From Polyangiales bacterium (GTDB lineage: Bacteria > Myxococcota_A > Polyangia > Polyangiales > Houyiibacteriaceae), in contig OZ245758.1 of the NCBI GenBank assembly GCA_965227405.1, positions 2,387,153 through 2,451,152 on the forward strand: a stretch of DNA of 64,000 bases. The letters are read 5' to 3'. Positions 43,240-49,164 of the stretch are shown here, piece by piece. Positions within the stretch are counted from its first letter, which is position 1. Each line of letters opens with the position of its first letter. Position numbers and translations under genes: made by a program. Below the pieces are notes generated by a model, which saw nothing but the letters and a program-made list of their open reading frames with translations, was not told the DNA's origin and made no database searches.

Positions 43240-43439
43240 TGATTCACGTACGTTTCGAAGGTAAGTCCTACGACATTTCTCCACTCGACTTGCGTCTCGA
43301 CGCAGGCATGGGTGACCAGGCGATCAAGCAGCGCATCGCGCAGTACCTTGATGTTGGTCTCGACCGGGTAGCTCCCTACGTCGTGGATCGTTCGCCAACC
43401 GGGCATGTGATTCTTCGCCCGGAAGCCGTTTACGGCTGA
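43240..43439 (+). CDS. 66-aa protein ending in Gly, possible ThiS/MoaD-like beta-grasp (speculative)
   Basis: ATG 43240 follows GGAGAGGCAAACG. Sequence [66 protein letters not shown]. ThiS-like length, a beta-beta-alpha-beta-like pattern, and a C-terminal Gly directly before the stop. Confidence 0.4.
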
Positions 43440-43479
43440 GCAAGAATCTCCTTTCAACAAAAGGGAAAACAAAGATTAC

Positions 43480-43851
43480 GGTTGTTGCCGCGCCCTTACG
43501 CGAGAAGCGTACACACGGTAAAAAACAAACCTCGCAAGTTTGCACTGTCGGTTCGAATCCGGCTCGGTCCACCGCGTCCTAGGACGCTGCAAACAGCTCG
43601 CGCTACAAAGCGAGAGCACTTCCCAAAGGTCGAACGAGCGCGAAGCGCTCGACGATCGGAGGGGGAACAAGCTCGGCGCTGAAAAGCGAGAGCACCTCCA
43701 AAGTTCGAACGAGCGCGCAAGCGCTCGACGATCGGAGGGGGGGACCCAGAGGGCTCTGCCCGATGGGGGGGGAGGACTTCAAGAAAGTCCTCCCAGAAAT
43801 CTGGGCCGAATAAACACATTCGTCGCTTTTACGACTTGTGCGGCAACAACC
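43480..43851 (+). ncRNA. helix-closed structured element (module 1) with a tRNA T-arm and two tandem ~75-nt hairpin-rich units
   Basis: GGTTGTTGCCGC (43480..43491) is the exact complement of GCGGCAACAACC (43840..43851). Inside are TACACAC (43510), the T-arm GTCGG-TTCGAAT-CCGGC (43547..43563) followed by TCGGTCC-ACC, a tandem repeat at 43595..43669 / 43670..43743, and a 9-bp hairpin GGAGGACTT/AAGTCCTCC. Confidence 0.35.
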
Positions 43852-43859
43852 TTATTTAC

Positions 43860-44004
43860 GCGCCTGTAGTTCAATTGGATAGAACGCCGTCGTCAAGACA
43901 GCTTCAGCAACTTACGCGGCTCCACTCGCGACTACTCTGCAAGCCTACACACGCATCGGGCTCATAACCCGGAGGTTACAGGTTCGAATCCTGTCGGGCG
44001 CTCC
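43860..44004 (+). tRNA. tRNA-Met(CAT)-like gene interrupted by a 69-nt insert in the 5' strand of the anticodon stem (module 2)
   Basis: GCGCCTG-TA-GTTC-AATTGGATA-GAAC-G-CC [insert 43889..43957] GGG-CTCATAA-CCCGG-AGGTT-ACAGG-TTCGAAT-CCTGT-CGGGCGC-T. The acceptor pairs over 7 bp (one T-G). The D, anticodon and T arms are canonical once the insert is removed. Confidence 0.45.
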
Positions 44005-44008
44005 TCTC

Positions 44009-44163
44009 GCACATCTCAAAACTATCGCCGGCCGCTACGCGGCCACAGCACACGACCTGCTGCCATCCTCTCGCCTCGGTAATGAGTACATTGCCTCGGT
44101 TCGCGGACGCACCATCTCGTGCACTCTGACGGCGTATCGACGGGCGCTAGTTTTGAGATGTGC
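44009..44163. mobile_element. MITE-like element, copy 2 (155 bp), inserted between tRNA-like modules 2 and 3
   Basis: GCACATCTCAAAACTATCGCC (44009..44029) pairs with 44143..44163 as a 21-bp TIR with one mismatch. Its interior is collinear with copy 1 at 22491..22653. Confidence 0.6.
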
Positions 44164-46524: not shown

Positions 46525-46646
46525 TCGCAACAACAAACAAGAAACAAGGAATGCGAGTGCGATCTCAGATGGGGTCGCTTCGCGTTCCCGGTTTCGAACG
46601 CGTGCGCGGCAATCGCACGTTTCCTTGGAGTTCATCCGTGACTGAC

Positions 46647-47534
46647 ATGAAGACTGCTTACCGACTTGCGGCTGCGGCCGTTCGTCGTCGTTACGCCGAG
46701 CAGCGTCCGCACACGCTGGCTCGACTCAACGCGCTGACCAAGAGTGACGTCGCGGTTTACCGTGGCGTGCACGACCACGTGCAGGAAGTGCTCAACATCT
46801 TGGGTGTTCCGCACAGCATGGATCCCAAAAAGCTGGAGCACCGCATCGCGTTCGTGAACTGCACGAGCAAGATTGCGCACGTCGACAAGCTCGAGCGCTT
46901 TGCGCGCGAGGGTGGTCTCGTCGTGAGTTCCGACTGGGCGCTGCGCACGATCCAAAAGACGTTTCCGGGCATGATCCGCAAGGGCGGTTCACGCGCGACG
47001 GGTGACGAGGTTGTGGGTGTCGAAGCAACGGCCGACAGCCTTTGGTCCGAAGTTGTCGTGCTCGGTACCAATCCTCAGTGGTGGCTGGAGGGTGGCAGCG
47101 ATCCGATCGTGATCGATTCACCGGACAAGGTCGTCATCGAGGCTGCAAGCCACGAGATGTTGCAGCGTTACGCCGCACCGGTTGTCGCTGCATCGTTCCC
47201 GTGGGGAGCGGGTCACGTATTCCACGTGGTCAGCCACTTCTGGTTGAAGCGCACCCGTACCGCTGCAGGTCGTCACGCAGGACCCGCAGCCGATTTCATG
47301 CGGGCCGGTCTGAAGTTGAGCGAAGAGGGCATCGACGCCGTATTCGCGAAGACCAAGATCGACCCGAAGGCCGTGAGCTTCGCTTCGCTTCAGAGCGCGG
47401 CGACCGCCACCGAGCTCGTCGCGCGTTTGTGCGCAGACGGACTCGGCGCTCAACCCGGCCTGCCGTTTGTCCCCGCCTCCTCCGAGGCGGGGACCAACCC
47501 TTTCCTCGCCGCTCTCAAGCGCGCGTTTTCGTAA
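46647..47534 (+). CDS. hypothetical protein (unknown function), operonic with rsr
   Basis: Start ATG 46647 (MKTAYRLAAAAV), or GTG 46638 after GGAG. 295 aa with coding-like composition. No motif I can name. Confidence 0.6.
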   Translation: MKTAYRLAAAAVRRRYAEQRPHTLARLNALTKSDVAVYRGVHDHVQEVLNILGVPHSMDPKKLEHRIAFVNCTSKIAHVDKLERFAREGGLVVSSDWALRTIQKTFPGMIRKGGSRATGDEVVGVEATADSLWSEVVVLGTNPQWWLEGGSDPIVIDSPDKVVIEAASHEMLQRYAAPVVAASFPWGAGHVFHVVSHFWLKRTRTAAGRHAGPAADFMRAGLKLSEEGIDAVFAKTKIDPKAVSFASLQSAATATELVARLCADGLGAQPGLPFVPASSEAGTNPFLAALKRAFS

Positions 47535-47538
47535 TCCA

Positions 47539-48396
47539 ATGACGCATGTTCTGGACCTGATCGATCGGCTCGCCCGCGCAGAGGACGAGCTTCGTTCGCG
47601 GCGTTTTCTTTCGCCGTGCGTTCCGGGCGTGCGTCTGCGGGTGCGCATCGACGGCTTGGTGCACGCGTTTGCGCCGAACCCACCGCGCTACGCAGGTTGG
47701 GGGTTGTTCCAGCCGATCGACTCGAAGCGCGCACAGCTGGTGAAGCGTCCAGACGACGCGCTGGTGAATCGCTACCTCGAGCACCTTCCGTCCGAACGCT
47801 TCTACGCGGTCAAGCAGGCCAAGGGGAAGGCGTGGTGGGCGATGCCGCTGTCCGCAGAAGCTTTCCGTGCGCGTCACGGTCGCGATGGTCCGATCGTGGT
47901 GCACCTGTGCAAGAACGTCGCGTCGTTCGAGACGATCGTCGTGCGTTGGGACGGTGCGAGCTTCTGGTTCGACCAGGTCGATCGTTTTGCCGATCCGGTT
48001 CTGCCGGAGAAGCTGCGCGTTGGTTTCACCGAAGGCAAGGAGCTCGAAGAGCTTCAGCTTGCGGGCATCACTCCGGAGCTCGTCGACGCGTACGTGTGGG
48101 CGTCGCTTTGGGATGTCGAGCAGCGCAAGAAGAGCCTTGAGGGTTCGCTCGCGCACGCGCTCAAGATCGGTGGCGGCAAGCTCGTCACCTTTCGCGACAC
48201 CGACACGCACCTCGTGGTGGAGTGGCGGGATCGCTTGGGTCGTCGACACAGTTCGGCGATTCAGAAGAACGCACTGCAGGTGCAAAGCGCCGGTGCGGTG
48301 TGTCTCCAGGGTCGCGATGCGGACTTCGATCTCACGTCGCTCGTCGGTGTGATGGACGAAGCCCCGCAATACCTCGTCGACATGCTCGACGATTAG
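47539..48396 (+). CDS. hypothetical protein (unknown function), operonic with rsr
   Basis: Start ATG 47539 (MTHVLDLIDRLARAEDEL), 4 nt after the previous stop. 285 aa, no motif recognised. Confidence 0.6.
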   Translation: MTHVLDLIDRLARAEDELRSRRFLSPCVPGVRLRVRIDGLVHAFAPNPPRYAGWGLFQPIDSKRAQLVKRPDDALVNRYLEHLPSERFYAVKQAKGKAWWAMPLSAEAFRARHGRDGPIVVHLCKNVASFETIVVRWDGASFWFDQVDRFADPVLPEKLRVGFTEGKELEELQLAGITPELVDAYVWASLWDVEQRKKSLEGSLAHALKIGGGKLVTFRDTDTHLVVEWRDRLGRRHSSAIQKNALQVQSAGAVCLQGRDADFDLTSLVGVMDEAPQYLVDMLDD

Positions 48397-48531
48397 CTCA
48401 CCCAAATCCGTACTCCTGCGTGTTTGTTGGGAATGCGCAGAGTGCGGGGGTTTGGGCTCGTTTTGGAGGGAGTTCGGGTCAGATCTGACCCTGTCCCCAA
48501 AATCCTCCCCCGATTGTGCGGAGAGAGTCTG

Positions 48532-49164
48532 ATGTCGTTTTTGTTTCACGAAAAGTTGTCTCGCTCGGGTGCTGTTATGGCGAAGCTTCGTGCTGCGCAT
48601 GTGACGGTGTGTGGGGCGGGTGCGCTTGGAAGCCACGTCGTCGAAGGGCTTGCTCGCTCGGGCGTGGGTGGGCTTCGCGTGATTGATCGCGACAAGGTCG
48701 AAGAGCGCAATCTCTCGACTCAGCCGTGGACGCGTGCAGACATCGGGCAGCCGAAGGCGCGCCTGCTAGCGCACTCTGTCTTTCGCGCGGTTGGCGTGCA
48801 GGTCGACGCACGTGCGAAGGAACTCAACAGCGACAACGCACGCGCGTTGGTTCGCGGTAGCTCCGTGGTTGTCGACGCGTTCGACAACAGCGTGGGTCGT
48901 GCAGCGGTCAAGGCTGCAGCCGCCAAGCTCGGGCTGCCGTGTGTGCACGCCGGGATGGCAGGTGAGTACTCCGAGGTCGTGTGGGATCCGCACTACGTGG
49001 TTCCGAGTGCGACCAACGACGACGTTTGCGACTACCCGCTAGCGCGCAACTTGGCGATCTTGACGTCCGCGATCGCGGCGGAAACGGTGATCCGTTTCCT
49101 CGCTACCGGAGTGATGGAGAACCGCGCCCTGACGTTCGGCGATCTAAAGCTGACGACCCACTGA
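48532..49164 (+). CDS. small ThiF/MoeB/E1-like adenylyltransferase
   Basis: Start ATG 48532 (MSFLFHEKLSRSG). Rossmann Gly loop VTVCGAGALGSHVVEGLARSGVG, then RVIDRDKVEERNLSTQ (the DxDxV..sNL.RQ pattern of E1-like enzymes). Only 210 aa, so it has no rhodanese or extra C-terminal domain. Confidence 0.75.
   Translation: MSFLFHEKLSRSGAVMAKLRAAHVTVCGAGALGSHVVEGLARSGVGGLRVIDRDKVEERNLSTQPWTRADIGQPKARLLAHSVFRAVGVQVDARAKELNSDNARALVRGSSVVVDAFDNSVGRAAVKAAAAKLGLPCVHAGMAGEYSEVVWDPHYVVPSATNDDVCDYPLARNLAILTSAIAAETVIRFLATGVMENRALTFGDLKLTTH

Follow-up and report, generated by a model that had tools for sequence, protein, structure and literature searches.

A Gly-terminated small protein and a minimal E1-like enzyme conserved with a Ro60-like gene and tRNA-mimic RNAs in bacteria and a huge phage

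The role of the bacterial Ro60/Y-RNA particle outside Deinococcus has been a question for more than a decade. A locus of a Polyangiales bacterium (GCA_965227405.1, contig OZ245758.1) raises it in a new setting. The locus lies at 43240-49164 of a 64,000-nt window, by which we mean the whole stretch of DNA analysed. According to the open reading frame (ORF) listing, its five genes and one RNA array are all on the + strand, co-directional as described in the initial annotation. They are a small Gly-terminated protein (here Ubl66), an array of tRNA-like RNAs, a Ro60-like gene, two genes called Unk1 and Unk2, and a minimal E1-like adenylyltransferase of the ThiF superfamily (ThiF). Do these elements belong together, and what might they do? 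The gene set is a conserved system, far beyond a chance neighbourhood, and it is widespread and apparently laterally mobile. For its function, we favour with about even confidence a non-canonical ubiquitin-like (Ubl)-E1 module that acts on a Ro/Y-RNA particle guarding or repairing the translation machinery.

Conservation and distribution of the gene set

Eighty Ro-like loci, designated below by L and a number as are the other related loci, were scanned with one profile hidden Markov model per protein, and counts were limited to the 51 with at least 8 kb on both sides. Ubl66 was present in 45/51 and Unk1 in 11/51, while Unk2 and ThiF were found in 32/51, always as a pair. Ubl66 accompanies ThiF in 31 of the 32 ThiF-bearing loci, and ThiF stands without it in one locus. 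In Unk2-centred loci with adequate flanks (n = 64), Unk2 has ThiF as its direct neighbour in 63 cases and a Ro-like gene no more than 6 kb away in 57. Identical order of all six elements was seen in three other Myxococcota loci. This arrangement, with tRNA-like matches separating the Ubl66 ORF from the Ro-like gene, is repeated in other Myxococcota as well as in Cyanobacteria, Acidobacteriota, Armatimonadota, Actinomycetota, Clostridia and Rhodothermales; it is also found on two plasmids (Dolichospermum and Leptolyngbya) and in one huge phage. Because the flanking genes of the window are not conserved with the set, the unit was taken to run from the Ubl66 ORF through ThiF. The proposal that these elements form one coupled system is well supported by this neighbourhood analysis.

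The opposite view, that they are mere neighbours with no functional link of the Ro-like/RNA part to the ThiF part, could draw on the intergenic gaps of 122 nt before Unk1 and 135 nt before ThiF, and on a terminator-like hairpin near 44996-45028. A scan of the locus, uninformative on this point, resolved no sigma-70-like promoter and no clear terminator. However, co-occurrence and order are kept across at least seven phyla, plasmids and phage while the flanks are not, and mere proximity is highly improbable. The window has no counterpart of a conserved 240-aa protein, without a Pfam match, that many cyanobacteria encode between the Ubl66 and Ro-like genes (L078:8798-9520 and 32 further cyanobacterial loci; L006:46-492).

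Ubl66, ThiF and their partners

The third-position bias of the Ubl66 ORF identifies it as a real protein-coding gene. Compared with the L012 copy, differences number 11 at first, 5 at second and 34 at third codon positions, and 26 synonymous against 13 non-synonymous codon changes indicate purifying selection. All 63 homologs in related loci are exactly 66 aa long and end in RPEA[V/L/I]YG-stop; the N-terminus M-x-H-x-RFEG-x-S is nearly invariant, and there are 13 database clusters, every one of 66 aa. Both the coding nature of this ORF and its C-terminal Gly, initially read from the window, are thereby confirmed.

The AlphaFold2 (AF2) model of Ubl66 has a predicted local distance difference test (pLDDT) score of 82.9, with strands at residues 2-6, 9-13, 47-51 and 57-61, a helix at 26-37, and a tail (residues 64-66) below 50. 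The order beta-beta-alpha-beta-beta is the one expected of a minimal beta-grasp, and on this model such a fold is plausible. PDB sequence and profile searches returned nothing significant, and PADLOC and PHROGs no informative match. The top Foldseek matches were a PB1 domain and a Parkin-phospho-ubiquitin complex, at a probability of about 0.2 and a template modelling (TM) score of about 0.4. One Nostoc member carries the UniRef label 'TGS domain-containing protein', TGS being a beta-grasp domain.

ThiF matches Pfam PF00899 with 108.3 bits against a cut-off of 28.1 (E 4.5e-31), and its adenylation motifs are intact, as expected from the first description of a minimal ThiF/E1-like enzyme. The motifs GAGALG, EERNLSTQ, DxFDN, PCxHAG and DDVC166DYPL are invariant in the orthologs, as are the cysteines C27, C137 and C166; K75, D-x-D and DAFDN are also conserved. 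CxxC zinc motifs, a rhodanese domain and a Cys domain are absent from the orthologs. The protein scores under every NCBIfam equivalog cut-off (ThiF 90.9 against 275, MoeB 70.4 against 449, TcdA 50.3 against 304, UbaA 67.2 against 450). The best PDB matches (UBA7, TcdA, ThiF, Uba4 and MccB) do not discriminate subfamilies, some orthologs are labelled t6A (N6-threonylcarbamoyladenosine) dehydratase in IMG, and PADLOC E1-E2 models match only the E1 portion. On these sequence comparisons the protein is placed in a separate clade of minimal E1-like enzymes.

The whole set is carried by a huge phage, the 595-kb uncultured phage LR756511.1, in the order Ubl, tRNA-like RNA, Ro-like, Unk2, JAB and ThiF, beside an array of 14 phage tRNA genes. 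Its divergent Ubl66 copy ends in RPDAIFG-stop. The additional protein, between Unk2 and ThiF, is a peptidase of the Prok-JAB family (PF14464; score 32.3 bits, cut-off 25) with an HxHx7SxxD motif. A JAB homolog, with no Pfam or PDB match of its own, is present at the same position in contig L174, and a jackhmmer search over the loci found JAB proteins only there and in the phage (L177; LR756511.1 273738-299240, features at 10134-18622 and 21217-24925). The phage JAB completes the classic Ubl/E1/JAB triad, by which Ubl systems are recognised from gene context. Context also supplies the best arguments that Ubl66 acts as a Ubl, namely the invariant Gly on its flexible tail, its near-obligate presence in loci that have the E1, and this Prok-JAB.

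A Gly-terminated protein beside an E1 could also be a sulfur carrier, and the initial annotation drew an analogy to relays of the TtuB/Urm1 type, whose targets in tRNA include T54. Here ThiF would adenylate Ubl66, a thiocarboxylate would be formed, and its sulfur would end up on a nucleotide, either in cellular tRNA or in the tRNA-like RNAs. In favour, the core includes an E1 without a UBC-type E2, the array RNAs have tRNA-like T arms, and the best NCBIfam scores of ThiF are those of ThiF/MoeB-type models, though below cut-offs. Moreover, JAB peptidases accompany some sulfur carriers, such as CysO/Mec+ and QbsE/QbsD. However, no PP-loop ATPase, rhodanese or cysteine desulfurase was found in the window or among the recurrent neighbours of about 170 loci; since every needed accessory enzyme is missing, the relay is unsupported. 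The Ubl66 terminus is YG (FG in the phage), while to our knowledge all characterised sulfur carriers end in GG. Even with a JAB in the set, Gly is the last encoded residue of Ubl66, and therefore the JAB is not needed for C-terminal processing. With a ThiF that also has neither rhodanese domain nor CxxC zinc motifs, a sulfur carrier is quite unlikely.

Unk2, the constant partner of ThiF, belongs to a family of 1106 representative clusters at 50% identity, almost always of about 280 aa, with relatives in 391 species-level genomes. No match was found in Pfam, NCBIfam, PADLOC, PHROGs or PDB sequence searches. In its AF2 model (pLDDT 82), two barrels of five to six strands follow an N-terminal helix and precede a long helix and a three-stranded sheet. 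The best local Foldseek matches are OB (oligonucleotide/oligosaccharide-binding) folds, namely the coiled-coil and OB region of Mpa/Rpt, IF1 and S17, all with E > 1e-3. The model and the Foldseek matches, which point to OB-like barrels, rule out Unk2 as an E2 of UBC fold. The C-terminal 40 residues are modelled as disordered, yet they hold the most conserved motif of the family, the invariant G-x-x-C255-L-x-G-x-D-x-D-F-D-L-x-S-L-V-G-V. A relative with an N-terminal zinc ribbon (L173:8001-10837) lies beside zinc-ribbon, DnaJ/CbpA-like and MerR-like proteins.

Unk1 forms about 98 database clusters without a Pfam domain. Its invariant positions are N71-C72, D96-W97, H193 and S196-H197. Searches of Pfam, NCBIfam, PADLOC, PHROGs and PDB (sequence and profile) gave nothing significant; sub-threshold matches to glutaminase-clan families appeared in single members only. 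The invariant Cys and His made Unk1 a candidate for the missing deconjugase, which is disfavoured by its presence in loci without Ubl66 and ThiF. It is found with a Ro-like gene in Rivularia, where both are absent, and thus is more likely a Ro-associated accessory. The folds first considered for the two proteins (E2/UBC, JAB, PP-loop or nuclease) therefore find no support in the database searches or in the OB-like model of Unk2.

The Ro60-like protein, its RNAs and their neighbours

The Ro-like protein is unusually conserved, with 58-64% identity between Myxococcota and Cyanobacteria. Its orthologs, named 'vWA domain-containing protein' by NCBI, are 58-81% identical and occur in at least 489 species-level genomes of several phyla. 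The gene always adjoins Y-like RNAs. In Pfam the protein has no TROVE (PF05731) match at E <= 0.01 and a weak VWA_2 match of 21.8 bits, below cut-off; VWA_CoxE was likewise matched weakly. The MIDAS (metal-ion-dependent adhesion site) residues D301-K-S303-G-S305, T363 and D387 are invariant in seven orthologs. A match to PHROG 850, an RNA-binding protein, was also found (3.7e-8). With phmmer, the window protein weakly matches the Ro60 of Thermus phage phiRo60, whose structures are 9KOP and 9L5Y (PMC12135203), at E 1.2e-4 (residues 150-394 on 175-431), and the Nostoc ortholog does so at E 4e-4 (residues 25-317 on 62-349, again a weak match). The two alignments are collinear and cover complementary regions. 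A profile of seven orthologs found no PDB TROVE chain at E <= 0.01. The protein is best described, by sequence, as a remote Ro60 relative rather than a proven member. For the name rsr given to it earlier, the sequence evidence is a remote TROVE-type match to phiRo60, and Pfam TROVE is not matched; the vWA/MIDAS features and the adjoining Y-like RNAs are as in Ro60 systems.

The features of the locus are listed in Table 1. All five genes and the array were found where the initial annotation placed them, except that the 66-aa ORF begins at 43239 instead of 43240. The G+C content between the Ubl66 ORF and the Ro-like gene is 0.53-0.57 versus about 0.62.

Table 1. Coordinates of the genes and RNA elements of the locus in the window
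Feature	Position	Strand	Details
Ubl66, candidate ubiquitin-like modifier or carrier	43239..43439	+	ORF, translation MIHVRFEG...RPEAVYG-stop, 66 aa
RNA array	43470..45030	+	Rfam tRNA matches, T-loop motifs, folds
Long structured RNA	43482..43851	+	closing stem GGUUGUUGCCGCGC / GUGCGGCAACAACC; fold z-score -8.2
tRNA-Met(CAU)-like module	43858..44005	+	~70-nt insertion between D arm and anticodon arm
Conserved RNA module with T-arm-like hairpin GGAGGUUCGAAUCCUUC	44168..44340	+	T-loop motif at 44203
YrlA-like Y RNA 1	44337..44459	+	Rfam tRNA 44363-44427, 36.2 bits; ARAGORN; z -3.84
Y-RNA-like module 2	44471..44575	+	fold z -5.57; 0/200 shuffles as stable
YrlA-like Y RNA 3	44589..44711	+	Rfam tRNA 44616-44677, 47.4 bits; ARAGORN; z -2.54
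Ro60-like gene	45067..46524	+	485 aa; helical N-terminal region and vWA domain, MIDAS motif DKSGS
Unk1	46647..47534	+	295 aa; optional accessory of Ro-like gene
Unk2	47539..48396	+	285 aa; starts 4 nt after Unk1 stop; obligate ThiF partner
Minimal E1-like adenylyltransferase (ThiF superfamily)	48532..49164	+	210 aa; Pfam ThiF

The two Y RNAs and Y-RNA-like module 2 have a common design: from a basal stem of 8 bp, an internal loop leads to a second stem, followed by CUUACACAC and a cloverleaf of three arms. In Y RNA 1 the second stem has 9 bp and the cloverleaf is tRNA-Lys(CUU)-like; Y RNA 3 has the same architecture, its tRNA-like domain bearing a UCA anticodon loop. Module 2 is composed of a CGCGCGCG basal stem, the second stem, CUUACACAC and three hairpins. 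UCGAAC is present on the 3' side of the internal loop in two of the three modules, Y RNA 1 among them. Such a CGAA-type motif defines YrlA RNAs (PMC4201824) and is found also in the Yrl RNAs of Thermus phage phiRo60 (PMC12135203). Five GGTTCGA(A/T)TCC T-loop motifs are spread across the array. The Rfam tRNA matches of the array span model positions 5-66 only, at 29-47 bits, while genuine tRNAs in a related locus score 55-70 bits. The YrlA model (RF02553, gathering threshold 69 bits) has no match in the window even at E <= 1 and reaches only 28-29 bits in L010.

The long structured RNA measures about 375 nt and has a 14-bp closing stem. Within it are a T-arm-like hairpin, whose T-loop motif is at 43551, and two direct repeats of about 75 nt (43598-43670 and 43672-43745). 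The repeats and the segment 44005-44165 are missing from the close relative L171; in this comparison, whole RNA modules are gained or lost as units and the other modules are nearly identical. This is the case for the tRNA-Met-like module, which has a borderline Rfam tRNA match (43942-43994, 28.9 bits) and whose orthologs in L001 and L003 give split-tRNA matches of 143-147 nt (51.8 and 50.6 bits). The module that follows the missing segment is a block conserved with L171, its fold alone not being significant (z -1.15). In 28 loci of cyanobacteria, the closing-stem 13-mer GTTGTTGCCGCGC of the long RNA is found again, about 150 nt upstream of the Ro-like gene, and the flanking motifs GCUUACAYAC and ACUUGYGYG are common to the window array and cyanobacterial loci. 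Folds beyond shuffled controls, CGAA motifs, modular conservation and sharing with cyanobacteria make the RNA part a real array of YrlA-type tRNA mimics, in agreement with the initial annotation, which had recognised the array from the sequence; the Rfam tRNA matches and T-loop motifs point the same way. Cyanobacterial and deltaproteobacterial YrlA variants with longer acceptor stems were already noted by Chen et al. 2014 (PMC4201824), and the window array is of this 'long acceptor stem' kind. At its end, 40 nt 5' of the Ro-like start codon, a hairpin AAAACGCG...CGCGUUUU followed by CGAU (44996-45028) may be the 3' end of the array or a terminator; the consensus scan did not call it.

Cyanobacteria, Acidobacteriota and the plasmids have a further Y-type RNA, placed directly upstream of Unk2 and ThiF. 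Its basal stem and GCUUACAUAC motif are the same as in the others, and it also carries the exact sarcin-ricin-loop 12-mer AGUACGAGAGGA and a 56-nt Rfam large-subunit rRNA match (50.5 bits) to 23S helices 43/44, the GTPase-associated centre. Some 75 of 170 loci have the 12-mer about 250 nt upstream of Unk2, where about 0.0015 occurrences per locus would be expected by chance. Judged by these sequence matches, the RNA appears to be an rRNA-mimicking Y RNA. Its sites include L009:4545-4757 (+ strand), L096-L170 near 5736-5747, L024:12327, L112:4704 and L176:2403. In the window array no sarcin-ricin-loop mimic was found on the + strand within 2 mismatches; the GCGAGAGC repeats fold with a different loop.

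Among the genes found repeatedly nearby in related loci are those of RNA-repair enzymes, namely RtcB, an RNA ligase of Rnl type (PF09414) with a PHA02142 OB domain, and Tpt1/KptA. Paralogs of translation components also lie near the Ro-like gene, L7/L12 in 23 loci, EF-Ts in seven and SUI1/YciH in L171. Other recurrent neighbours are AAA, DUF6847 and GNAT proteins and several unknowns. Examples of the paralogs are at L007:6641-7477, L032:11647-12252 (EF-Ts) and L171:5194-5586 (SUI1/YciH), and they are often followed by a conserved 148-aa protein (18 loci). In L010, about 26 full-scoring tRNA genes (1-2651 and 3732-3805) lie immediately upstream of a cluster with Ro-like, VWA, RtcB, N6-adenine methylase, Unk2, ThiF and amidase genes, with no Ubl66 within 4 kb. 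In the cluster of Rivularia sp. PCC 7116 a second vWA protein, divergent and 471 aa long (L007:12138-13553), is encoded after an RNA ligase and before ARPP-1/ARPP-2, AAA and NUDIX genes.

These surroundings bear on a possible role in abortive infection, in which the RNA mimics would be baits and Ubl conjugation would trigger growth arrest. The set is patchy across phyla at about 60% identity, which suggests lateral transfer, and plasmid copies lie beside HEPN, insertion sequence (IS) and HNH genes. Bacterial Ubl systems such as Bil and Cap2 of the cyclic-oligonucleotide-based antiphage signalling system (CBASS) do act in defence (PMC10557695). However, no PADLOC model matched beyond the shared E1 domain, and the genes that keep turning up alongside encode no toxins but RNA ligases, Tpt1, RtcB and translation-factor paralogs. 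A complete copy beside the tRNA array of a 595-kb phage fits the aim of keeping translation running. The phage copy beside tRNAs and the RNA-repair neighbours favour a protective or repair role, and abortive infection is considered very doubtful.

Proposed mechanism and relation to known systems

In the non-canonical Ubl-E1 module that we favour, the core of the particle would be a ring of the Ro60-like protein with several Y-type RNAs imitating tRNAs and, in cyanobacterial copies, also the 23S sarcin-ricin loop and the GTPase-associated centre. The minimal ThiF-type E1 would recognise Ubl66 by its invariant RPEAVYG tail, adenylate Gly66 and probably take Ubl66 onto Cys166 of the invariant DDVCDYP loop. 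Unk2 would then stand in for a classical E2. Its OB-like barrels may dock on the RNA or the particle, and the invariant Cys255, on its flexible tail, could serve to receive activated Ubl66 or to guide it. Finally, Ubl66 would become joined to some part of the particle or of the translation apparatus, and in phage-type versions the JAB would undo this. In physiological terms, the system would watch over, protect or repair translation RNAs that nucleases have damaged. Conjugation by an E1 without an E2 has precedents in SAMP/UbaA and TtuB/TtuC.

Several observations weigh against this reading. Ubl66 has no Foldseek match at E < 1e-3 in PDB or BFVD and belongs to no Pfam or NCBIfam family, Pfam Ubl families included, and hhalign comparisons with ThiS/MoaD/TtuB/CysO and TGS were negative, at low power and with possibly imperfect reference sequences. 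The beta-grasp proposed at the outset is a plausible candidate fold, from the order of strands and helix. Unk2 has no UBC fold and its Cys tail is modelled as disordered, for which reason its E2-like role can only be inferred. The zinc-ribbon relative in L173 has neither ThiF nor a Ro-like gene alongside, and therefore the Unk2 family has at least one other context. Neither the window nor any of the cellular loci examined has a JAB. Finally, ThiF and Unk2 are not within 8-10 kb in 14 of the 45 Ubl66-bearing loci; in at least one such genome, Dapis, the Ubl66-bearing locus (L041) lacks the E1 pair nearby and Unk2 is on another contig (L167).

The leading rival reading treats Ubl66 as a non-covalent, stoichiometric subunit of the Ro-like/Y-RNA particle, with ThiF and Unk2 as an add-on adenylating something else; it is kept alive by those 14 loci without a nearby E1. 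Ubl66 could then be a TGS-like binder of RNA ends or, via its acidic tail, a ligand of the Ro-like MIDAS; the substrate of ThiF could be, for example, a carboxylated nucleoside, as for TcdA on t6A, or a peptide, as for MccB. Indeed, Ubl66 pairs with the Ro-like gene more often than with ThiF (45/51 against 31/51) and persists without a nearby ThiF. The TGS label in UniRef, TcdA among the best PDB matches of ThiF, the t6A dehydratase labels, the resemblance of Unk2 to OB-type RNA binders and the invariant MIDAS are all compatible with it. In contrast, ThiF almost never occurs without Ubl66 (1/32), an invariant C-terminal Gly on a flexible tail is a hallmark of E1 substrates, and the JAB of the phage and L174 argues for a protein or isopeptide substrate. 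In addition, ThiF scores about 50 bits where the TcdA equivalog cut-off is 304. We consider this alternative rather unlikely.

A more specific form of the Ubl-E1 reading, itself an unlikely one, concerns the purpose of the RNA mimics. The Ro-like ring would display decoys of the sites attacked by ribotoxins and anticodon nucleases, which are the anticodon arms of tRNAs together with the sarcin-ricin loop and GTPase-associated centre. Ubl66, ThiF and Unk2 would constitute a ubiquitin-like pathway of a kind not known before, in which an OB-fold, Cys-tailed protein takes the place of the E2. They would read the state of the decoys and covalently mark the particle, a translation factor or even the RNA, triggering repair or protection; bacteria and a huge phage would in this way keep translation alive in conflict.

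The locus combines features of several known systems. Uba5 and Atg7 are non-canonical E1s with the catalytic Cys inside the adenylation domain, and their Ubls end in one Gly preceded by a hydrophobic or aromatic residue (VG, FG or WG). ThiF resembles the E1s of Uba5-UFM1 and Atg7-Atg8/12 in being compact and without a separate Cys domain, and Ubl66 ends in YG or FG, but no specific sequence relationship was detected and the partner is not a UFC1- or Atg3-type E2. In archaeal SAMP/UbaA and Thermus TtuB/TtuC, too, a small protein ending in Gly is served by a minimal E1 with no E2 involved, and there is a connection to tRNA in the case of TtuB/TtuC (PMC2948915). However, SAMP and TtuB are ThiS/MoaD-family proteins with a GG end that double as sulfur carriers with PP-loop partners, none of which was found here. 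The Ubl-E1-JAB(-E2) operons described by Iyer, Burroughs and Aravind 2006 (PMC1779556), together with Bil, Bub and CBASS Cap2/Cap3, share with our set a Gly-ended protein, a ThiF-type E1 and, in the phage, a JAB. Unlike Bil, Bub, 6E and CBASS Cap2, no UBC-fold E2 and no E1-E2 fusion was found here, and unlike the prokaryotic Ubl operons, the set has no known Ubl family and has an OB-like, Cys-tailed partner. This set is tied to an RNA-protein particle and not to CD-NTases or phage-tail targets.

Bacterial Ro60 (Rsr)/YrlA systems, including Salmonella rsr-yrlBA-rtcBA and phiRo60-Yrl, also have a vWA/MIDAS Ro-type protein beside structured RNAs with a long stem, a CGAA internal loop and a tRNA-like domain, and RtcB is present in the related locus L010. 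However, in our locus the Pfam TROVE and Rfam YrlA thresholds are not reached and solved Ro60 proteins are matched only at E of about 1e-4. RtcB and RtcA of the Salmonella repair operon are both absent from the window, and the Ubl66, Unk2 and ThiF genes and the cyanobacterial rRNA-mimicking RNA have no counterpart in described Ro operons. In the literature searched, whose coverage did not extend to Burroughs and Aravind 2016, no paper couples Ro60 and Y RNA to an E1 or a Ubl, in accordance with the initial statement that no such Ro60 locus was known. That literature describes Ro/Y-RNA particles and Ubl/E1/JAB systems separately, but neither their conserved union nor an OB/Cys partner replacing E2 nor an rRNA-mimicking Y RNA.

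The Ro/Y-RNA particle hence gains defined and very widespread partners, which are a Gly-terminated protein, a minimal E1, an OB/Cys protein and a phage JAB, as well as RNA mimics of toxin-targeted translation RNAs, and a vague question is turned into specific experiments. If the favoured Ubl-E1 reading is true, the set would be a new E2-less, RNA-linked branch of prokaryotic ubiquitin-like systems. Three protein families without annotation, Ubl66, Unk1 and Unk2, are highlighted as well.

Around the unit, the window contains non-conserved neighbours. These are a protein with nine disintegrin repeats (39797-41953), a ferritin-like protein (DUF455/AurF, weak; 49306-50115) and a MopE-type metal-binding repeat protein (49997-50950).

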